Under the pieces are notes generated by a model. It did no database searches, was not told the origin of the DNA, and was given only the letters and a program-made list of their open reading frames with translations. Positions 10,372 to 64,000 of a stretch of 64,000 nucleotides of DNA are shown one piece after another (the first letter of the stretch is position 1; the number at the start of each line of letters is the position of its first letter). The translations under genes were made by a program, and so were the position numbers. The DNA is taken from contig OX597830.1 of assembly GCA_951406725.2 (NCBI GenBank), forward strand, positions 27,218,001 to 27,282,000, in the 5' to 3' direction. Source of the DNA: Octopus vulgaris (lineage: Eukaryota).

Positions 10372-10533
10372 TAGGCGTAGGAGTGGCTATGTGGTAAGTA
10401 GCTTGCTTACCAACCACATAGTTCCAGGTTCAGTCCCACTGTGTGGCACCTTGGGCAAGTGTCTTCCACTATAGCCTCAGGCCTACAAAAGCCTTGTGAG
10501 TGGATTTTGATAGACAAAAATTGAAAGAAGCAT

Positions 10534-10586
<53 letters not shown>

Positions 10587-11027
10587 CTATGTGTGTCCCC
10601 CCAACCGATGCTGGTGTGTTTACGTCTCCGTAACTTAGTGGTTCGGTGAAAGAGGCCGATAGAATAAGTATTAGGCTTACAAAGAGCATATCGATCCTGG
10701 GATCAATATGCTCAACTAAAAGGCAGTGCTCCAGCATGGCCACAGTCAAATGACTGAAACAAGTAAAAGAATAAAATTGATAAAGAACAATAAAATTTCA
10801 GTCATATATTATTGTTATGTTCTTTTATTCTTTTACTAGTGTCAGTAATTTGACTGTGGCCATGCTGGAGCACCTCCTTAAAGGGTTTTAGTCAAACAAA
10901 TTGACCACGGAAGTTATTTTTTAAGCTTAGTACTTATTCTATCGGATACTTTGTGCTGAACTGCTTAGTTATTGAGGTGTAAACATATCAACACCTGTTG
11001 TCACATGGTGATGAGGTACAAACAAAG

Positions 11028-29535: not shown

Positions 29536-31471
29536 TATTATTATCATTATTATTATTATCATTATTATTATTATTATTATTATCATCATTATTATTTTAT
29601 GAAATAATCACAGTAAGTATCATTGCCTATTAATTCTTTCAAGTGTTTCCTTGCTCTCTTTTCTATTTTCTTTTCTTTTCTTTTTCTTTTTGGTGTATGC
29701 TTCATAAGCAGCATATATATTTCTTTGATTTTTAAAACAAAACTTTTAATTAATATAATGTAATCTAACCATTTGTGCATGCACACATGCACATGCGCAT
29801 GCACACATGCCCACATGCATGCATGCATGCATTTTAAAGTAGTACTCTGTAAAAATCTAAATTAACTAGCCCCTATGTCTATGCTTGCTTAATATATATA
29901 TGTCTATGCTTGCTTAATATATATATATATATACCAGAGTAAGCAGATAAATATGAAACAAGGTGGAAAAAAATAGTTCTCAAATACCGGGGGCTAGTAA
30001 TATACTTTATTAGTAAAGTATATATATACTAGCTGAGGTATCTGCTAATACCTGGGAGTGAAGATATTGAAATCAAGACATAGGACAGATAATAGAGGGC
30101 ATAAACAAATTCATTCACGAAACAATAATACAAATAAATATGTGTGGAATTGGAAAATGACAATTGTTTGGTGAGATGAGTGGAAAGCTGCAAATATATA
30201 ATCAATGGAAACATCAAGAAGGGAATTGTAAAAGAGTGCTATGAAGGAAAAAAGAACATAAAAGTTTGAAAAGTAAACAGAAAAATTATTTAGAAAAAAG
30301 AGATTTTTATACTTACAAAAACAGTTGGAGTGCAGAGGTGACAACGTGGCAGTCATAAGAGTTGTAAGATGCTATAAGGAGGGTAAAAAGTGGATGGTAC
30401 TGTACCCTTGGGGGCAGTGGAAAAGATCCAAGGCACATTGCAGAAAAGTGGGGGTAATGATGAAGTAGTCAAAAGGGGGTGATGGATGTAAAAAATTCAA
30501 AATAATAGGTTAATTGGGTAGAATTTTATTTGTGAAATTCTATTGTTTTGAATTTGTGGGAGAAAGTGATTTATGCTTTTGGTGGTGGTGGTGGTGGGGG
30601 GGCACCAGGATTGTGGCCTGTGTGCCAAAGGGAGCAGCAGTCTGAAAAAGTTTGGGAACCTCTGCTCTAGGGCAACCAAGGGATCCCACTCCACTGATCC
30701 TAGATCACCCTGACCACCAAGGATACCATTGGAGGTGCCTCCCTCCCATTCTTTCTTTTTCTAGCTTGCAGGCACAAGTTCCGACCAGGATCTGCTCACT
30801 TGAACAACCCTTGCCACATTCATCCATCTTTCAACAAACCTCCTATGTGCAGTGTGAGAAACAACAATAATACAACTCACAAACAACAAACAATCTTCAC
30901 TAAAGACAATGAGGGCTCCTCTATGCTGCTGCCTGGTCTGTGAGAAACAGTAGCTAGATCTCTCTCAGATCACATCCTGCTATCTTAAGAAATGGACAGA
31001 TGTTTTAGATGATTTTTCTCCTAGTTATTCCTTCAAAAACAAATGTGGGCTTGTTTTGACTGGAGTGCTTTTGAATGTATCGAGGCTTTTGAATGAATCG
31101 AGGCTGACATGGGACGAAGTAGCATCAACAGGGACAATGTGCAGCTTTGCTGTCTTGGTGATAAAATATTAAATGTTATATTACGGTTCAAAATATTTCA
31201 GACGTCCAGAGTCAAAATCTGGCAGAGGCATGTGCAATGTTGTTGGCTTGAGTGATCTTTGCGTGACATCGGCATGGGTGATTTTTAACATGGTGTTGGA
31301 GGGCTGCACCAGGTCTCAATCTACTGTTTTGGCATGTTGTCTATGGCTGGATGCCCTTCCTAATGCCAACCACTTTACAGAGTGTACTGGGTGATTTTTA
31401 TGTGGTGTGCAATGTGCAATGTTGTTTTGGAGAGACAGAAATTGTTGCCAGGAGTGAAACAATCATATGTA

Positions 31472-32206: not shown

Positions 32207-33480
32207 ATGCAGTGCCTTTGTTTTATCATTGCCGTCATTGACATCATTGTCCATTTCCTATGCTGGCATGGGTTTGGATGGTTTGACAGGAGCTGGCAGA
32301 GCTGGAGGGCTGCACTAAGCTTCAGTCTTCTGTTTTGGCATGTTGTCTATGGCTGGATGCTCTTCCTAATGCCAACCACTTTACAGAGTGTACTGGGTGA
32401 TTTTATGTGGTGCTGGCTTGAGTGCTCTTGCGTGACATCGGCATGGGTGATTTTAACATGGTGTTGAGGGCTGCACCAGGTCTCAATCTTCTGTTTTGGC
32501 ATGTTGTCTATGGCTGGATGCCCTTCCTAATGCCAACCACTTTACAGAGTGTACTGAGTGATTTTATGTGGTGCTGGCTTGAGTGCTCTTTGCGTGACAT
32601 CGGCATGGGTGATTTTTAACATGGTGTTGGAGGGCTGCACCAGGTCTCAATCTTCTGTTTTGGCATGTTGTCTATGGCTGGATGCCCTTCCTAATGCCAA
32701 CCACTTTACAGAGTGTACTGGGTGATTTTTATGTGGTGCTGGCTTGAGTGCTCTTTGCGTGACATCGGCATGAGTGATTTTTAACATGGTGTTGGAGGGC
32801 TGCACCAGGTCTCAATCTTCTGTTTTGGCATGTTGTCTATGGCTGGATGCCCTTCCTAATGCCAACCACTTTACAGAGTGTACTGGGTGATTTTTATGTG
32901 GTGCTGGCTTGAATGCTCTTTGCGTGACATCGGCATGGGTGATTTTTAACATGGTGTTGGAGGGCTGCACCAGGTCTCAATCTACTGTTTTGGCATGTTG
33001 TCTATGGCTGGATGCCCTTCCTAATGCCAACCACTTTACAGAGTGCAGTGCCTTTGTTTTATCATTGCCGTCATTGACATCATTGTCCATTTCCTATGCT
33101 GGCATGGGTTTGGATGGTTTGACAGGAGCTGGCAGAGCTGGAGGGCTGCACCAAGCTTCAGTCTTCTGTTTTGGCATGTTGTCTATGGCTGGATGCTCTT
33201 CCTAATGCCAACCACTTTACAGAGTGTACTGGGTGATTTTTATGTGGTGCTGGCTTGAGTGCTCATTGCATGACATCGGCATGGGTGATTTTTAACATGG
33301 TGTTGGAGGGCTGCACCAGGTCTCAATCTACTGTTTTGGCATGTTGTCTATGGCTGGATGCCCTTCCTAATGCCAACCACTTTACAGAGTGTACTGGGTG
33401 ATTTTATGTGGTGCTGGCTTGAGTGCTCTTTCTATGGCACCAGCATGAGTGCTTTTTAACATGGTGCTGGCATCGGCACC
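32207..33480. repeat. Tandem array of ~164-bp SINE-C-derived units
   Basis: Units start at ~32307, 32468, 32632, 32797, 32962, 33143, 33308 and are nearly identical. 32207-32306 recurs at 33044-33142; an orphan unit lies at 31245-31408. Confidence 0.95.
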
Positions 33481-42623: not shown

Positions 42624-43987
42624 GTAGTAGTAGTAGTAAGGTGGTGAGCTGGCAGAATTGTTACCCTGCTGGGCAATATGCTTAGCAGCATTTCATGTCT
42701 TTACATCCCAAGTTCAAATTCCACCGAGGTCGACTTTAATTTTCATCCCTGGTGGGGTTCATGTTATCGACTTACCCCTCCACTAAAATTATTGGTCTTG
42801 TGCCAAAATTTGAAATCATCATTATTATTATTATTATTATTAATAGACAACAGGTGATCCGTCCAAGAAAAACAGAAAACTATCGGTAGTTTTTGTTTTT
42901 TTCTATTTTTCTTTTACATGTTTTCTTTCTATTTTATACAATTATTTCCTCCCTTTTTTTTTATATATATAAGAAAAAACGTAATTGATAATAAAATAAT
43001 TTCACAAATTTTGTTTTCTAATTTAAATTTCAATCTTATTAAAAAATGAACTTATTTGTGGAAAGCGCCACCAACATCCCAGATATGATAACCCATTTTA
43101 GGAGAGTTCCAACCGTGGCCACCAAATCTTTTAAAGAGCGTTCCAAATCTCTGTATTTACATGAATAGGTTATGTTGTGTCAAATCAAAAGTGTCAATGA
43201 AAATAGTGCAGTCTATATATGGTCGTGTGAAAAGAGCCAATGGAAAAATGCGTGGTCAATCGTCTATTTTGTCAGTGTGTGTGTGTGTGTGTGTGTGATA
43301 AGAACAACACCTAGATTTTAATGAAATGTTGTAAAATGCATAAAAATAACTCTTCTTGCAATGCCAGCAAAAGAAAAGGAGTTTTTTTTATTTTTTGGCG
43401 ATAGTTCTTTGTTCGAAGGTAAATGGACAGATAGATACCTTTCCATAGAAGTAAATGAAAAATGTGTGTGTGTGTGTGTGTTGTGTATGCATGCATGGCT
43501 TATTTGTAAAGATTTGGGTGTTATTCATAAAAAGTAGAATCTTGAACGCCATTATTTGACCAAGCAAAAGAAATATGGCGGTTTAAATGGTAACATTGTA
43601 TTTAGACGAGCTAGCACTTTTAAAAGAATCTTAATGCAAACAACAATCTATATTCAGAAGACTTATTAGTGAAAATATTTCCGTAGTGTATAAGCTAACT
43701 GCAAAGAAATTGAAACCACACGTAGAGGCAAGTCTATTAACGAGTGAATAGATTGCTACTGCATGAATTTGAACCCCACTGCCGAAAAAACCCCAAAAAA
43801 ACAGAAGCCGCCAACACAATGCGATGGCGTTGCCACAGAGAATGGTCAGCCGAAACTCGTAGCAGCTACACCACCTCGTGGGGTTCGTTTCTCGGGCAGG
43901 CAGCTGTTATCCAGATTTTACGGATGAAGTCGGTATTGTGGGGTTCGAGGACACTTGAAGTCTCGACGGTCACCGGCATAACCTGAT

Positions 43988-44400
43988 AGGCACAGGAGTG
44001 GCTGTGTGGTAAGTAGCTTGTTTACCAACCACATGGTTCCAGGTTCAGTCCCACTGCGTGGCATCTTGGGCAAGTGCCTTCTGTTATAGCCTCAGGCCGA
44101 CCAATGCCTTGTGAGTGGATTTGGTAGACAGAAACTGAAAGAAGCCTGTCGTATATATGTATATATATATATGTGTATGTGTGTGTATATGTTTGCGTGT
44201 CTGTGTTTGTCCCTCTAGCATTGCTTGACAACCGATGCTGGCGTGTTTACGTCCCCGTCACTTAGCGGTTCGGCAAAACAGACCGATAGGATAAGTACTG
44301 GGCTTACAAAGAACAAGTCCCGGGGTTGATTTGCCCGACTAAAGGCGGTGCTCCAGCATGGCCGCAGTCAAATGACTGAAACAAGTAAAAAGAGTAAAAA
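43988..44400 (+). mobile_element. SINE family A, full length
   Basis: Near-consensus copy. Confidence 0.9.
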
Positions 44401-46279
44401 AGATAGTGGCCGGTTACTCTCCTGTATTTATTTATTTTTCTCTCTTATGCATTACAGGCTTTGAAACCGATACCCGGTTTTGTAGCTAAAGCAGCAGTGT
44501 TGGAGCCGGAGAACATGTCGCTGTGCGTCACGTCCCACTTCAGGGATCTGCATCCCTCGAATGAGAAGGTTATTCTGTCGGGGCGATTACCGTCCCCGCG
44601 GTCAAGAGTTAGAATTTGTATTTTGTTTGATAGGCGTTGGAGTGGCTGTGTGGTAAGTAGCTTGCTTATGAACCACATAGTTCTGGGTTCAGTCCTACTG
44701 CGTGGCACCTTGGCCGAGTGTCTTCTAGTATAGCCTCGGTCCGACCAAAGCCTTGTGAGTGGATTTGGTTGACGGAAACTGATAGAAACCCGTCGTTTAT
44801 GTATGAGACAGAAAAAGGAAAAAAGAAAAAGAGGGAGGGAGAAGCGTTTATGACGTGAGGTAGGGGGAATGTAATATTTATTAATTGGTTAAAAAAGTTA
44901 GTTGAGGGTAGAGGAAATGAGTTAAAAATATATAATTTTAGCAGAGAGATGATGTTCTGATGGTGAGGTGAAAGAAAGACAAAGTGAGAGAGAGAGAGAG
45001 AGAGAGCGAAAATGATGGTGGCGGAAGAGATGGAGGTGGTGGTGGTGATTGGGTAGTGAAAAGTGTATTTAAAAAAAAAAACTGAACTTAGTTTTTTATA
45101 ACAGCTATCGCATGTGCATAAGTGTAATTCCGTGAAATATTCACGCTTATTTACGTAGCAGATTTAACGAAATTTAACGAAAGGCTGCATCATATATAAG
45201 AGATATTTTTTGTTTCGTTTATGCGAAAAATGGAAAAATAAGAGTGAATATTTATTTTCTGTGTGCTGTGTATTAATTCTATAAAATCCTGCAAGTATAT
45301 AAAGTGTATATATAAACTGCATTAAGTAATCATCGTATTCCAATTTCTTTCACTGTTCAATGAGTAGCAGATGAGCGACTATCGTTCTATACAGACGCGA
45401 TACAGGCTACACTTCCAGGTTTTTTGGATAAAGTTTTCAGAAGTAACTCAATGGGTTTACCCTTAATCCTGTGAAATAGTCACGGGTCTTGCTAGTCTTT
45501 GTTTAAATATACTGCCAGTTTCACAACTTTATATATCAACTGTTCTTCAATGCCACCATCTAATAAATATGGTGGGGCTAAAAAAAAAATGAAGTATATA
45601 AGGCTGTGACCAGTCAGTACATTATGAATAGCTAAATTCTATGTAGTAGCTCCAAACATGTTTTGGTCTTATTAGACCTCTTCATTAGACTAATTTCCCC
45701 CACAGGTGCATTTACCATAAAATGGATAGTGGTACTCAACCAGCTTTTACCTTTGAAACCCTTTCATTCATATTTTACTCGGGGTGGGTGGGGACATACA
45801 CTTCATAGTCATTCGATGTTTAAAAAAATCCTATTATATTTTTATAATTACATTTTATTAGGAATTGCATAAAACAATCGTTAGAATATTTTGTATATTG
45901 TAGAATTATGACCAATTTATGACACATAAATTTTAGTAACCAAATCTCATATGGATCCTTAAGGGTCATATGTACCCTGGTTGAGAATCACTGGTCTAAA
46001 GGAAGATCCCATGAACTTTAACATTCCCCCCTCCTGCCACATTCTGCTCCAAGACTGGGTTATTTTACTGGGGGCGATTTCTCCCACACCTTGAGGCATT
46101 TCTGTTGCGAAACTTAATGTGAATATGTGAGGGAAAAACACTTTCGAATATCGTTTCGATAGATGGATTCAATCGTTCATCAGAAAATATCATTGATTCG
46201 ACCTGAAACCATTTCTTGAAACTGAACTAATTACATTGTGGAAGAAACATTTTACTATTGAAGAAAAACATAAACTGTT

Positions 46280-46433
46280 GTGGCTGTGTGATAAGTAGCT
46301 TGCTTACCGACCACATGGTTCTGAGTTCAGTCCCACTGCGTGGCACCTTGGGCAAGTGTCTTCTACTTTAGCCGCGGGTCGACCAAAGTCTTGTGAGTGA
46401 ATTTAGTAGACGGCAACTGAAAGAAGCCTGTCG

Positions 46434-46480
<47 letters not shown>

Positions 46481-46675
46481 CTGTGTTTGTCCCCCAAACA
46501 TCGCTTGACAACCGATGCTGGTGTGTTTACGTCCCCGTAACTTAGCGGTTCGGCAAAAGAGACCGATAGAATAAGTACTAGGCTGACAAAGGATAAGTCT
46601 TGGGGTCGATTTGGTCGACTAAAGGCAGTGCTCCAGCATGGCCACAGCAGTCAAATGACTGAAACAAGTAAAAGA
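46280..46675 (+). mobile_element. SINE family A
   Basis: Near-consensus copy. Confidence 0.9.
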
Positions 46676-46764
46676 GTTTATTAATAATATCTTGGGTTAC
46701 CAGAAGTTTTGCCCAACCAACTGCAACCTTGTCATCGACCCACATTCACTGAATTATATTAGTT

Positions 46765-54871: not shown

Positions 54872-56376
54872 CCATCTCGTTCATGTCCTGATGGAATCTC
54901 TCCTCCTGCTTGTCGCTCATTGATCCCAGATTTTCAAGAAACCGATCCACATGGAGGATAAGTAATGCATTTTAATGCTCATGGTGCATCCGAGATTTCT
55001 GAAAGCAGTCAGCATATTGGTGACGAGTTCTGCATAGTTCTTCGCATTGTTGTTGCCAAGAAAGTTCTTCACGGCCAGAACAAAAGCCTTCGACACTTCC
55101 AGTTCCACTTCGTACTTTGAGTTTTCAAACTCAGGCTCTTTGATGAGCTGACGGATTTGAGGACCATCAAAGATGCTAGCTTTCAACTTCTCAATGATCA
55201 ATCTTGGAAAAGCTTGGCACAAGTAAGTGAAGCAGCCACCATTCTTGTCCAGAGCTTTGGTGAACTGCTTGATCAATCCGAGCTTGATGTGCAGTGGTCG
55301 GAAGAGTATTCTGTCTCTGTCCACCAGAGGGTTAATTATGAGGTTCTTAGCACTGCAAGGCACTAATTCGTCCCTCAAAGGTCAGTCCTTCTTCTTGTAA
55401 TGCTGAGTAGTGTCCCTACTATCCCACATGCAAAAAAAGCGTGGGTACTTGGTGAACCCAAACTGTTGTCCCAACAAAAAATTCACCATCTTCAGGTCAA
55501 CACAAATAAACCACTAATGCCAATTATAACGAATTTTCTCCATACTTCACCGCTTCATAATTCTTCAGTGTAGTCGAGTGAGCGAGGGGAACAGAGGCAA
55601 ACTGGTTGCCGTTGTGCAGCAGAACACATTTCAGCGATCGCTAGCTGCTGTCAATGAATAGTCTTCAATCTTTAGGTTCGTACTGTGGCACTCCAAGCTT
55701 GTACAGAAGATGAGCAATATCTGTACAGTACACCAAGTGCTTCTCTTCAGAGATAAAACGGAGGTACTCTTGATGCCTGTAGCGGTAGACGGTGATACGA
55801 GCACTGTCAGAGAGGAGGTTGTTTTCCTTTCAATCTGGATGCCAACAGTTCGGCAGAGGACGTTGACAATCCGTGATCGCAAACTAGATCTTTTAGCTCC
55901 CTTTTGGAAAAAGGATGTGGAGCATCATCGTCAAAGACTGGAGGATTCTTCGTCTCTAGTGTTAAGAAGTTCTCCGAAGACGTACTGGAATTTCATCATA
56001 GTGAGCTACAGGATAACGTGCTGATTGAAGATCAGGATACTTGAGACTGCTCCGGTACTTTCTGTTGATCCCAGTCACATCAATAGCCCAGAAATAGCAG
56101 TCAGTGCCATGGTGTGTCGGCTCCCTCCAAACCACAGGAATTCCAAACTTCAGACAACTCTTGGTCCACTGACGCAGATTCTCGATGCATGCTTTGCATA
56201 ACTTATGTGGCGCCCAAGCTTTATCCTGGTCACCAAGTTTAATACCAAAATAAGCATGGTAAGCACGTTTCATGAAACTTTTGACTGGAAACCTGTTAAG
56301 AACAATGGTGTATTCACCGCAGATGTAGCAGAATACATTGGGGTTACATTTGCAAGATCTTCTGGTCGAAGCCGTT
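54872..56376 (-). pseudogene. Chapaev3-like transposase pseudogene
   Basis: FCYICGEY..GDQDKAWAPHKLCKAC..WREPTHHGTDCYF; LLHNGN; ICVDLKMVNFLLG; LHIKLGLIKQF..DGPQIR..MSIKMH..ERFHQD. Several frameshifts; probable start ATG>ACG after a tttacag acceptor. Confidence 0.85.
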
Positions 56377-56646
56377 TCATTCACCTGTAAAATATAAAAT
56401 AACAATTAATCATGAATAGGTGCATGCAAACTATTCTGAGTTCAGTTCTATATTTAAGGGATGAGTAATTATTTACATTATTTACATTTGACGGATATTT
56501 GTCCTCATCTTGTTTGTCCCACGGGCATATGGCGTAGTGGTTAAAAGCGCGGGCTACTAACCTCAAGATTCCGAGTTCGATTATTATTATTATTATTGTT
56601 GTTGCTGTTGTTGTTATTATCATTATTATTGTTATTATTACTATCA

Positions 56647-56808
<162 letters not shown>

Positions 56809-56887
56809 TAATAATAATAACAACAACAACAACAACAACATCGAAAAATACCTTAGGAATGAGAACACAGGTTTGAAATTTCCCCAA

Positions 56888-56933
56888 GACACCTGATGAA
56901 GGCTGGAGGGTATATCAGCGGAAACGTTGTGTT
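56888..56933 (+). ncRNA. Minimal type I hammerhead ribozyme motif (Penelope-like, dimeric form)
   Basis: GACAC-CTGATGA-a-gGCTG..CAGCg-GAAA-CG-TT-GTGTT. Stem I GACAC/GTGTT, stem II GCTG/CAGC, palindromic AACGTT helix III. Confidence 0.7.
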
Positions 56934-57901
56934 AACAACAAACAAGATGAGGACAAATATTCGTGAAATGTAAATAATGTATTCTGACTTTTGTTTATTT
57001 CAAGAAATAAAAAAGGATTTTGCGTCATATTAAGTAAAAATACCCGTACATGTAAACAAAAACGTAAAAAAAAAACATGTGGCCATAGTTCAAAAAGCTG
57101 ACAGGGTTGAGCAAAACTCATGTGATTTTGGGGTTTAGCACACCAGAATTGTTCTAAATCAGCTAAAAAAATTTAGACAATAATTTTGTTGTTGACCAGT
57201 GTTATTTCTTTTAATGTATGAACTCAACTTGGGGTCAAGTGAACTATTAACAAGAAACCCCATTTTTTTTTTAGATGAGTTGTGGTGGAGGCGGGAAATG
57301 CCTCTTAATTTTTTTTTTTCGGAGAGAGAGAGAGAATGCCTTTGTTTGTGATGGTACTAACAGTTTCTGTACTGGCTAAAAAACCCCACCTCCGTTACAG
57401 ATTAGGTCACCTAGGTAACTAAAAATATCAACTACAAATCGACCCCAGGACTTATTCTATGTAAGCCTAGTACTTGTTCTATCGGTTTCTTTTGCCGAAC
57501 TACTAAGTTCGGTTGTCAAGAGATGGTGGGGAACAAACACACATACACACACACACACACACAAATATATAGATATATACATGTTGAGCTGAGACCCCCT
57601 TCGGTCATGACTGATCATGGGATTGCACCTAGAAAGTTACCCTCCGAGGAACACGTCCGGGCAAGATTGATTATGGAAGACCAGCATACCAGCCTTCCCT
57701 CTCCACGCCACCAATGTTATCCAAGAGAAAGCTTGGCATCAGTGATGTTACAACTCATTTCTATAGTTGAGTGAACTGGAGCAATGTGAAATAAAGTGTC
57801 TTGCTCAAGAACACAACACACAGCCCCGGTCTGGGAATCGAACGCACTACCTGATGATTGTGAGCCTGACGCTCTAACCACTGAGCCATGCGCCTTCAAT
57901 A

Positions 57902-58064: not shown

Positions 58065-58446
58065 TTAGTGCTATTTCGATTGAAAGACTGCGGCAGTATA
58101 ATACTCTATGATTAAAAACTAAATGAAAATCTTACTCCATATCCAAATTTCAATCCAGTATTAAACATTATTTGTCCTCAGACATTCGTTCGGTATTATA
58201 CATACATTTGAATAATTTACAGTGTGTATATACGAGAGCCTGATTGAACAGGAGAGCTGGTTTAAGTGTTTTTATGACCAAAGCATTTCGTTTTTGTACT
58301 TAGTTTGCGAGATTATTGGTGCAATGACCCTACCGAAACATTACAAAAGCATGATATTGTAATAAAAACACTTACATCAACACTTCTGTTTTATTCTGCT
58401 CTCGGATATATATGTATGTATATATATTAATTTATTATATAGAAGG

Positions 58447-58497
58447 AGCTTCTACAGGACTAGTACTGTTTCATTCAAGAGAAATCTTCAGGAAGCT
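58447..58497 (-). ncRNA. Type I hammerhead ribozyme motif (inverted copy)
   Basis: Exact reverse complement of 60765-60815. Confidence 0.75.
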
Positions 58498-58762
58498 ATT
58501 TAACAAGAATTGTATTAGCATTTATACATTTAGGCAGGTTTAAAGGAGTGGTGGTGGGGGACTTTTTGGGGGTAGGCATAGCGCAAAATATCATACTTGG
58601 GGGAGTGGTCAAGGAGTCAGTGGTAAGTTGTATATATGTTTATATATGTGAGTATGTAGTGATATAAGTATATGCATGTGTATGTATGGGTATGTGTATC
58701 AGTGTATATGTATATATGTATGTGTGTGTGTATGTATATGTATGTATATGTGTATATATGTA

Positions 58763-58797
<35 letters not shown>

Positions 58798-58860
58798 GTG
58801 TATATGTGTGTATGTATGTGTATGTGTATGTATGTGTATATATATCTATATATGTATATA

Positions 58861-58924
<64 letters not shown>

Positions 58925-59201
58925 TGCGTGTGTGTATGTATGCATATATGTATGTATGCATGTATATGGGTATGTATATATATGTGTGTAAGTGTGTGCA
59001 TATATGTATTTGTAAGTATGTGTGCGCGTATGAGTATGTATGTATGCTTGCACACGTGTATATATATGTGTGTGTGTGTATATATATGGATGCGCGTGCG
59101 TGTGTGCACGTGTATGGGTACGCATGTATATGTGTATGTGCGTGTATGCGTATACGTGTATGTATGTATGTGTGTGCGTAGATTTGTATATGTATGTGTG
59201 A

Positions 59202-59238
<37 letters not shown>

Positions 59239-59424
59239 TATAGATGGGTGTGTGTATGCGTATAAATGCATGTAAGTATGGATGTATGGATGTATGTATG
59301 TATGTATACGTATGTATGTGTGTATGTGTGTATGTATATATATATGTGTGTATATATGTTTGTGTATGTATATATATGTGTATGTATGTGTGTGTATATA
59401 TATGTGTATGTGTGTATGTGTATG

Positions 59425-59470
<46 letters not shown>

Positions 59471-60342
59471 TATGTATCTGTATGTAGGAGTATATATGTG
59501 TGTGTGTGTATGTATATGCGGGTATATATATATATATGTATATTTATTGGTGTATATGTATAGACTAGCCTCCTAAAGTGTAGACACGAATCTGTAGGTA
59601 CGAGTACGTATGTGTATATACGTGAACGTATGTAGATGTTTGTATGTATGAATATAACGCGTGCGTACGTGTATGTGTATGAGTGTACGAATGGGTGAAT
59701 GTACGTGCTAATGAGTGTGCGTGCGGGAATGAGTACTTGCCTTCTAGTAGACAGACAAATGGACATGCAGCCATTGCCAGGATTCTTAGCCCTAGCGATC
59801 AAAGATAACAAAAGTAATAAATGAAGATAATAAAATTAAAATTAGGGAATGGGCCTGTATTGGATTGTATATATATATATGTATATGTATATTTGTATGT
59901 ATGAATGTGTGTATGTGTAGGTATGTATAGGTACACATGTGTATGTGTATGTATATATGTGTGTATGTATGTATGTGCACACATGTATATATATGTATGC
60001 GTGTATATGTTTATATATATATATGTGTACATAGGTGTATGTGGGTGTATGTATATATAGGTGTAAATATGTGTATATAGGGAACTAGGTGTGTTGTGTG
60101 TGCATGAGTGTATGTGCGTATGAATATATATTTTTTTATGTGTATATATGTATGTGTGGTCGTGGGTATATATATATATATATATACATGTGTGTATGCG
60201 TGCATGCATGGGAGTGAGTGTATGCATATATACGTGTGTGTATGTGTAGACAGGTATAGGCATGTGCATGTGTATAAATTTGTATATGTGGGCGGGTGTA
60301 TGTATGTGTGTATGTAGATATGTATGTATGTGTGTACATATG

Positions 60343-60391
<49 letters not shown>

Positions 60392-60764
60392 AGATATATG
60401 TGTATGTATGTATGTGTGTGTAGATACGTATACATGTGTGTATAGGTATAAGTGAGAATCTCCTTATTTACCTATAACTCTATCCCCCCTTTTTTTATAT
60501 ATATATTTTTTTATATATATATTTTATATATATTTTTTTATATATATTTTTTATATTTTATATTTTTTATTTTTTTATTTTATTTTTTTATTTTTTATTT
60601 TTTTATTTTTTTATTTATCTATTCTTTCATCTAACTTACCACTGACTCCTTGACCACTCCCCCAAGTATGATATTTTGCGCTATGCCTACCCCCAAAAAG
60701 TCCCCCACCACCACTCCTTTAAACCTGCCTAAATGTATAAATGCTAATACAATTCTTGTTAAAT

Positions 60765-60815
60765 AGCTTCCTGAAGATTTCTCTTGAATGAAACAGTACT
60801 AGTCCTGTAGAAGCT
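60765..60815 (+). ncRNA. Type I hammerhead ribozyme motif
   Basis: AGCTTC-CTGAAGA-tTTC tctt GAAt-GAA-ACAG tactagtc CTGT-A-GAAGCT. 6-bp stem I, 3-bp stem II, 4-bp stem III, GUA cleavage triplet. Confidence 0.78.
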
Positions 60816-60906
60816 CCTTCTATATAATAAATTAATTTTACTCTGCTATGTATTGAGTACCTTACTTACTGTGGTTAACCCCGAATCAACCCGGGACCTA
60901 CATATG

Positions 60907-60957
<51 letters not shown>

Positions 60958-61327: not shown

Positions 61328-62416
61328 TATATCATATATATATATATCATATATCATATATATCATATATATATATTATATATATCATATATATGGCAAC
61401 GAGAAACTCAGAGTAACAGATTTTGTTGAATTTATATATATATATATATTTCTATGTATTTGAATGTATGTGTGTGAGTGCATGCGTGCGTGCGTGCTTG
61501 TGTATCTATGCGATCTGTGCGTATGGACGCGTATAAGGTGTTGTTTAAATGGCTTTCTTTAGTTGCCTTGCTGTTTGATATTATTGTCGTCAAATTTCGT
61601 TGCCATGGAAATTCGCTCTCCAGCATAGATAGATGTGACACACCACTCAAGATTGCTCAACACTACCCTCAACTGCTGTAATCATCAGGAAAAAGAAGTC
61701 GTAGAAAAATAAGAAGCATTTCCCACCCCCCACCACATCTCATCTGGGAAAAAAAATGGGGTTTCTTGTTAATAGTTCACTTGACCCCAAGTTGTTCATA
61801 TTTAATGCGTTCATACATTAAAAGAAAAAAAAATAGCAAAAAAAAATACCAGCTAAAACTCTCTGTATTATCTCTTAATATCTTGCTGCAGTTATATCAC
61901 CATCACCAGCAAGCACCACCACCAACCAGCACCACCACTACCACCGCCACCACCAACGCTACCACAACGACGACGACCACCACCAAAACAATCCTCCTCC
62001 GCATAATTATTGTCGTCGTCGTCGTCGTCATCATCATAAAGGGTTTTAGTCGAAAATAATCGACTCCAATTCTTCGTTTTGTTACTTACGCTATCTTACG
62101 CTGAACCATTGAGTTACGCGGACGTAAATAAACTAACACCAGTTGTCAAGCGGTGGGGCACTGCAAACAAAAATACAATGACACACGCACACTCACGCAT
62201 GCATACACGCATACATACACACACATACACACATGGTGAACTGTTAATCTCTCCACATTTTTTCCCGTTTTTTCTTCTTAATCCTTTCTGTCGAAGATCT
62301 TAGGCTCGAAACGTAAAATACATTTCCATTCTTCCCAAGCGTGAAACTAATATATCTGCTTGTTGTTTCTACACCTGTCTTCGTCTTTTGCTTTCTGTAT
62401 ATTTGAACTAAATAGA

Positions 62417-63148: not shown

Positions 63149-63151
<3 letters not shown>

Positions 63152-63377
63152 GGAGTAAACACATAAATGTGAAACAAGGTGGAAAAAAGACTACTCAAAT
63201 ACCAGTGGTAGAGTAATATGCTTTATTTAAAGCAGCAGAAAATTCAACAAAACCTGTTACTCTGAGTTTCCCGTTGCCTTTCATCGGACAGTTTCTGCTA
63301 ACAAAAACTGTCCGATGAAAGGCAATGGGAAACTCAGAGTAACAGGTTTTGTTGAATTTTCTGCTGCTTTAAATAAA

Positions 63378-63378
<1 letters not shown>
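63149..63378. mobile_element. Fold-back Penelope-like terminus in (TA)n with two hammerhead-like motifs
   Basis: Arms 63221-63294 / 63305-63378. CTGT-CCGATGA-..GGCAA..-GAAACTCAGAGTA-ACAG at 63308-63345(+) and 63254-63291(-). Left part homologous to 29932-30010. Confidence 0.7.
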
Positions 63379-63425
<47 letters not shown>

Positions 63426-63676
63426 CAAGAAAGTTAGAGGTTGTGAATCCAACCAACTAAGGGATAATATCTATCCAATATACTGGTGGTAGAATACCCA
63501 ATTATTAATACACAAGTGTTTTTTTATTGCATCGCACTTACAATACCTAGTGTACTAAATGGGTGAGGGTAAAGAGGTATTTTACCATTAATTCATAGAG
63601 CAATAAGAATATGGAGGGGATCAATAGGTAGTTCATCAACTTTTAGACATATTATGTCTATTTATTTATTATAAAT

Positions 63677-63846
63677 AGGCGCAGGAGTGGCTGTGTGGTA
63701 AGTAGCTTGCTTACCAACCACATGGTTCCGGGTTCAGTCCCACTGCGTGGCACCTTGGGCAAGTGTCTTCTACTATAGCCTCGGGCCGACCAAAGCCTTG
63801 TGAGTGGATTTGGTAGATGGAAACTGAAAGAAGCCCGTCATATATA

Positions 63847-63880
<34 letters not shown>

Positions 63881-64000
63881 GTGTCTGTGTTTGTCCCCCT
63901 AGCGTTGCTTGACAACCGATGCTGGTGTGTTTATGTCCCCGTCACTTAGCGGTTCGGCAAAAGTGACCGATAGAATAAGTACTGGGCTTACAAAGAATAA
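63677..64000 (+). mobile_element. SINE family A (runs off the window end)
   Basis: Consensus-like head GGCGCAGGAGTGGCTGTGTGGTAAG. Confidence 0.9.

Follow-up and report, generated by a model that had tools for sequence, protein, structure and literature searches.

Head-to-head hammerhead-bearing arms around two kilobases of microsatellite in Octopus vulgaris: a probable Penelope-like insertion

The locus and its parts

How some 2 kb of microsatellite came to lie between two identical, oppositely oriented arms, each with a hammerhead ribozyme motif, is the question raised by one region of a 64,000-nt stretch of the Octopus vulgaris genome (contig OX597830.1 of assembly GCA_951406725.2; the whole stretch is here called the window). 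Probably 58426-60901 was inserted recently, in a single event and in trans, by an endonuclease-bearing (EN+) Penelope-like element (PLE), an assignment drawn from its non-coding ends, with no partner protein in the window. The parts of the unit are as follows.

58410..58427 (+): left target-site duplication (TSD) candidate, an exact match to 60902-60919; 16 nt lie strictly outside the arm, 18 nt if the 2 AT letters common to the arm end are counted
58426..58629 (−): left arm, an inverted, 5′-truncated pLTR-like repeat end without tail, perfect complement of the right arm
58447..58497 (−): left-arm type I hammerhead motif, predicted cut after 58453
58630..60450 (+): interior cargo without coding signal, a TG/TA microsatellite that is degenerate and strand-polar
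near 59545-59620 and 59700-59870: unique islands in the interior, each found once in the window
60451..60632 (+): short unique stretch and T-rich tract before the right arm, family-borne from at least 60615
60633..60836 (+): right arm, pLTR-like repeat end, seen in the exact inverted match and in family contigs
60742..60766 (+): putative 3′ splice site, with its AG where stem I begins on the 5′ side and its branch-point A at 60747
60765..60815 (+): right-arm type I hammerhead motif, predicted cut after 60809
60806..60824 (+): predicted competing hairpin, which would hide the 3′ strand of stem I together with the cut site
60837..60901 (+): one-sided tail of ~65 nt, family-borne, covered by many contigs in all four runs compared
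60902..60919 (+): right TSD candidate, inside a (TA)n tract

Exact extension gives inverted arms of 204 bp (58426-58629 and 60633-60836) that are 100% complementary, bracketing 2 kb of microsatellite as the initial annotation had described. Its arm positions stand; the outer limit of 58426..60836 that it gave the unit does not, as the tail continues to about 60901 and the TSD follows. Elsewhere in the 64-kb window there is no second copy of arm, tail or islands, and the arm is not tandemly repeated there. The left flank (58227-58410), which is unique, shows weak inverted repetition (68% over about 190 nt) and may be an ancient MITE or foldback element. GTAAGT, a consensus-like splice donor word, lies antisense at the inner end of each arm (60634-60641 on the minus strand, 58621-58628 on the plus strand) and may be a chance occurrence.

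The interior is strand-polar and not mirrored, with 311 TG against 36 CA dinucleotides, and its tandem repeats are degenerate (67-69% matches by TRF). A host tract at 17.2 kb has a comparable polarity (TG 64, CA 5). The claim that no ORF lies between the arms is upheld: the frames there are repeat-derived only, and the four element frames tested gave no Pfam match. Ten frames chosen among the 96 listed ORFs of the window likewise gave nothing above the curated cut-off, no RT/GIY-YIG partner ORF was found in the window, and ARAGORN called no tRNA gene there. The marks of an autonomous PLE, an RT-EN ORF between the repeats or an ORF start in or near the hammerhead, are absent, and no frame with an ATG start extends out of the hammerhead to reach the tail; with no RT-EN ORF between the repeats, the unit is excluded as an autonomous PLE. 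If the unit is a single PLE insertion, then for the source of the interior host DNA upstream of the donor pLTR has slightly better than an even chance, and a fixed part of a non-autonomous family slightly less than that.

The hammerhead motif

In a descriptor scan the motif has a stem I of 6 bp, CUGAAGA, a stem II of 3 bp, GAAA, a stem III of 4 bp with a loop of 8 nt, and a GUA triplet. Both arms thus hold the CUGANGA/GAAA core, the three stems and the NUH triplet by which a hammerhead is defined, and the type I fold of the initial annotation, with predicted cuts after 60809 (+) and 58453 (−), is complete in each. The strict motif occurs twice in the window against a mean of 0 in 60 block-shuffled windows. 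The G10.1-C11.1 pair that closes helix II is absent, a U.U pair standing at the base of stem II instead.

Folding predictions for the isolated 51-mer give a firm stem I (P 1.0), a fair stem III (P 0.74) and a weak stem II (P 0.11). The stability of a 71-mer is no better than that of its own shuffles (z 0.20), and by folding z-score the motif cannot be told from shuffles. Rfam returned two matches at E<=10, neither of them a hammerhead, and in the scan of the window none of the 150 matches listed, of 212, is one; the Rfam miRNA matches were set aside as microsatellite noise. Helix III has a predicted energy of −15.2 kcal/mol in the dimer against −1.4 kcal/mol in the monomer. The hairpin at 60806-60824 is predicted at −5.9 kcal/mol and forms with P 0.55-1.0 in longer contexts, and the models suggest that a lone arm, too, would favour it over the cleavable fold.

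Comparison of copies of the repeat family gives nine positions with substitutions at 3% or more, and three of these are inside the 51-nt ribozyme: N7 (60775), loop II (60783) and loop III (60798). None is in a stem or in the invariant core, a conservation across copies that the initial annotation had counted on. That all three are at free positions has P about 0.02 when 15 of the 51 positions are counted as free, which is modest support, the copies being related. At 60798 the other letter (U) makes up 72, 88, 81 and 56% of depth in the four runs compared (X1, X9, X16 and X18). The ACUAGU palindromic loop noted earlier is therefore present at the locus but is not the family norm, which is CUAG, a palindrome of 4 nt; the 6-nt form is a variant.

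The AG at 60765-66, at stem I's 5′ edge, has a branch word 19 nt upstream, and similar words precede 168 of the 3333 YAG sites in the window (5%). Donor-like words, all weak, are at 60446, 60452 and 60666. From these words, 60451-60632 may be part of an intron, and a branch word placed just there is suggestive, only that, of an intron end.

A variable family in public sequence runs

The arm is the end of an abundant and varied repeat family. By word sampling of 60615-60895, 20 of the 24 listed runs, in 8 studies and under 3 organism labels, hold at least 79% of the sampled words. None of the runs that hold it is listed as RNA, although X18 may be. Family contigs were compared at a likeness of at least 85%, over the arm and tail region, for X1, X9, X16 and X18 (3 studies, all contigs), chosen among the runs that carry no mark as a possible source of the window (two rows carry one); the other 16 rows that hold the family play no part in the results. 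Contig pieces matching the family number 12310 in X1, 1303 in X9, 652 in X16 and 19 in X18; summed contig depth is not taken as copy number. Contigs from all four runs cover 60615-60632, and one X18 contig reaches 30 letters further upstream. Pattern scans of viral contigs, metagenome contigs and prokaryote genomes gave no matches. For octopus, 31 recently active PLE families are annotated, with ribozymes unmentioned in the accessible part of that source (PMC13282606).

Where copies end is seen from loose contig ends, among the 24 clusters listed. There are two kinds of 3′ end. Tail-less ends at 60832 (19 contigs in X1, 14 in X9) and at 60836 (10 in X1, 4 in X9) run into (AT)n; they are 23-27 nt past the predicted cut, and the left arm at the locus stops at the equivalent of 60836. 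X16 and X18 have tailed ends, near 60883-60893, with AT repeats beyond them. A further cluster, at 60765, is present in all four runs (19, 2, 4 and 1 contigs in X1, X9, X16 and X18). Its loose letters reproduce 60769-60781 in exact reverse complement in X18, and do so with the N7 variant in X1; in X9 and X16 they are mixed and a fold-back is not clearly visible. AGCT at 60765-60768 is thus a recurrent head-to-head fold-back junction of the family in two of the four runs (X1 and X18). A single X1 contig, which remains unexplained, joins 60826 to 60765.

Set against this diversity, the arms of the locus differ at none of their 204 bp although the family is highly variable, and they agree at 60715, 60763 and 60798 in alleles that are rare in most runs (X18 is the exception, having mostly the same alleles as the locus at 60715 and 60763). 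Rare alleles common to both arms are expected if both were copied from one template. Gene conversion or assembly polishing could also have made the arms identical.

A single insertion and how it may have been made

The 18-nt word of 58410-58427 and 60902-60919 occurs three times in the window. Among 7482 ordered pairs of 87 alternating tracts, matches of at least 16 nt are found in 51 and of at least 18 nt in 36 (0.5-0.7%), a background drawn from one window for a TSD that is itself in microsatellite. With the right flank held fixed, the true left flank alone matches. A single insertion of 58426-60901 is the simplest account, since the TSD is around the unit and the arms are identical and have rare alleles in common. 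Four marks of EN+ PLE insertion are there: a hammerhead in the terminal repeat, an inverted 5′-truncated copy, a one-sided tail and a TSD in (TA)n. A family with tail-less and tailed 3′ ends also fits two RT start sites that between them define a PLE tail. That the unit co-mobilised microsatellite, as proposed initially, is most likely, given the 18-nt TSD around the whole of it, the identical arms, the one-sided tail and the abundant family.

The template was likely an uncut RNA, with 2 kb of microsatellite upstream of its hammerhead-bearing end, that went into a (TA)n target. For such an RNA, consisting of microsatellite, pLTR and tail, an autonomous partner would supply the binding RT/GIY-YIG protein, and both target strands would be nicked, 16-18 nt apart. 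The first cDNA would start at the tail site and run for 2.27 kb; the second would start at the tail-less site and stop after 204 nt. Joining of the two cDNAs head to head, with repair leaving the TSD, would give the structure seen. Self-priming on one template (PMC3846280, in the portion available) is an alternative route that would lead to the same product. By either route the ribozyme would be a passenger of the pLTR, its cutting dependent on a dimer or on the element's protein, and it would not have set the ends of the window copy.

Other explanations

The structure might instead have arisen from two independent insertions of the same family, back to back in a long host microsatellite, the interior never having moved. 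Such a history draws on the family's targeting of (AT)n, on an interior that looks old and resembles the TG-polar host tract at 17.2 kb, and on one X18 contig with a copy truncated at 60700 and TG/TA repeat before it. It is nonetheless unlikely: the 18-nt duplication encloses the whole unit, there is a tail at one side only, and two separate events would have had to bring in, from a variable family, 204 bp without a difference and with rare alleles in common. Very unlikely is that the left arm, or the perfection of its match, is a product of assembly, whether by fold-back chimera or by the collapsing or polishing of a high-copy repeat. The interior is strand-polar rather than mirrored, the left arm ends at a family end found in independent runs, and the unique left flank and the TSD fit one another; on the other side are the high copy number of a family sited in microsatellite, the trouble that inverted PLE structures are described as giving assemblies (PMC8557442, in part), and the fact that no read or contig was seen across the unit.

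The other two alternatives concern what kind of element this is. A retrozyme-like unit, in which two ribozymes would cut the transcript to yield a circular or long-stem RNA as the mobile form, has in its favour the intact hammerhead core and the association of type I hammerheads with animal non-LTR retrozymes (PMC7229834; bioRxiv 10.64898/2026.07.22.740005; both in part). There are no tandem same-sense monomers and one sense core only per strand, pairing between the arms is predicted to shut out the fold, at a cost of about 86 kcal/mol, and family copies extend beyond the cut site; this reading has already failed on structure, and we hold it to be extremely improbable. The initial label of a recent non-autonomous PLE/retrozyme-like unit therefore keeps its first half (PLE-type, recent, non-coding) and loses its second, there being neither tandem nor same-sense ribozymes. 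An LTR retrozyme was also considered and rejected, as it would have a type III hammerhead, direct LTRs and a 4-bp TSD where the locus has type I, inverted repeats and a 16-18-nt TSD. Long perfect inverted ends with a TSD are what a non-autonomous DNA transposon with 204-bp terminal inverted repeats would show, the hammerhead-like words then being due to chance. Such an element would not account for a tail outside one arm only, for family sequence that continues inside one arm only, for several alternative end points and fold-backs, or for variants that spare the ribozyme core and stems, and it can scarcely be entertained. We return to the single PLE-mediated insertion.

The transcript and self-cleavage

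It had been proposed that transcription in either direction would give a self-cleaved, long-stem RNA. This does not hold. A transcript of either strand has one sense and one antisense hammerhead core; with one sense ribozyme per strand a circle cannot be cut out. In the full-length RNA all 204 arm pairs are predicted to form, and forcing the hammerhead fold is predicted to cost about 86 kcal/mol, so that, on these models, only fast co-transcriptional cutting could escape the block by the arm duplex. The recurrent family ends all fall beyond the predicted cut, which means a template that had not been cleaved at that point. As a weak negative, none of the 24 clusters of loose ends listed, with 85 more outside the listing, is at 60809/60810.

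Comparison with known systems

The nearest counterparts are insertions of EN+ PLEs. As described in the accessible text of Craig et al. 2021 (PMC8557442), these have an inverted 5′-truncated copy beside the 5′ end and a tail of 30-40 bp that is often confined to one end; their targets include microsatellites, where TSDs are often not discernible. In Arkhipova et al. 2013 (PMC3846280, likewise in part), pLTRs of 181-218 bp are reported with inverted ends, 8-10-bp TSDs and palindromic junctions, together with a host gene mobilised in trans and with TSD-flanked cases in which pLTRs have captured unrelated non-coding DNA between them. The octopus unit shares with these insertions the inverted truncated 5′ copy, the tail at one end, the TSD, palindromic junctions in the family, the microsatellite target, unrelated DNA between the repeats and an arm length (204 bp) within the 181-218-bp range. 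It departs from what is described there in having no ORF, a cargo of 2 kb of degenerate microsatellite, a longer tail (~65 nt against 30-40), a longer TSD (16-18 nt against 8-10) and two arms only, with no second direct pLTR. The unit is likely a case of the known PLE insertion pattern, with the size of its repeat cargo the sole unusual touch.

The ribozyme has its own parallels. Truncated PLEs give opposite-strand hammerhead pairs 100-700 bp apart, and PLE hammerheads have a small palindromic helix III, low monomer activity and a highly conserved G10.1-C11.1 pair; the Penelope of Drosophila virilis has an intron whose end falls at helix I (Cervera and de la Pena 2014, PMC4209133, from the portion available). 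Type I, a palindromic loop 3 and opposite-strand pairs are features in common, and an intron end at helix I may be another, whereas the octopus motif has a helix II of 3 bp without G10.1-C11.1, and a helix III of 4 bp that is longer than the minimal form described there. An axolotl hammerhead family also has U.U at the base of helix II (PMC7229834, in part).

For the mechanism, the comparison is with the Poseidon element PAc of Anolis carolinensis, from the parts of Frangieh et al. 2024 (PMC11167929) at hand. The PLE protein studied nicks and extends both strands of AT-rich DNA; two start sites define the tail, uncut RNA is used, and the ribozyme needs the protein. PAc and the octopus family are alike in having two 3′ ends beyond the hammerhead, in targeting AT-rich DNA and in an uncut template (PMC11167929). 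They differ in that the PAc ORF starts inside the hammerhead, no such frame being present in the octopus unit, and in that PAc was assayed in vitro while the octopus unit is known from its sequence (PMC11167929).

Animal non-LTR retrozymes, according to the available portions of PMC7229834 and bioRxiv 10.64898/2026.07.22.740005, are head-to-tail, same-sense tandems of 150-450 bp that give circles. The unit resembles them in being non-coding, in its type I hammerhead and in having likely been moved by PLE proteins, but it is head-to-head and cannot yield circles.

No paper on the family, or on PLEs that carry microsatellite cargo, was found in the open-access literature; the supplements of PMC3846280 and PMC8557442 may hold similar cases, and a general link between retroelements and microsatellites is already in print (PMC2678813, in part). 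The locus is a clean, young PLE example in which both kinds of 3′ end, a TSD and cargo are found together, and it could serve as a test for how inverted copies form. If many copies carry microsatellite cargo, this would show concretely how long microsatellites can be spread by retroelements, and repeat annotation would be splitting such elements into 'simple repeat' and fragments. A larger proposal is doubtful at present: that the PLE family routinely ships kilobases of TG/TA microsatellite into (TA)n and so is an engine of the genome's microsatellite load, that the downstream hairpin restrains the hammerhead so that read-through RNAs are copied, and that the fold-back hot spot at stem I is the 3′ splice site.

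Other elements in the window

Three unrelated hammerhead families within 7 kb were initially counted. The intact minimal core at 56893 is confirmed; the pair near 63 kb has an altered core, CCGAUGA in both arms (U4 changed). This second family, at 63150-63383, is a miniature version of the same plan, with 82-nt fold-back arms (96%) in (TA)n and a 66-nt one-sided tail at 63150-63215. The core change was likely already in the template, yet the copy moved. Fragments of the family are at 61395-61433 and 29932-30018.

The third family (56474-56981) has a minimal hammerhead with intact core at 56888-56932 (+), and 44 nt of its downstream end are repeated inverted at 56474-56517. The ends enclose a mirrored (ATT)n/(AAT)n tract as well as a stretch resembling a tRNA (about 56522-56580), which ARAGORN did not call. 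It is a second case of hammerhead-type ends that enclose microsatellite.

Broken frames on the minus strand at 54917-56405, which look like a decayed DNA-transposon-type gene, include an N-terminal piece that weakly matches zf-AD (E 0.002, below the cut-off). A tandem array of about 165-bp units occupies 32208-33470, with a dispersed copy at 31238-31407; motif scans found no hammerhead motif in the array. A SINE-like family that has a TA/CA tract inside it is abundant, with many copies, at 63675-64000, 43986-44405, 46280-46677, 10372-10782 and other positions.
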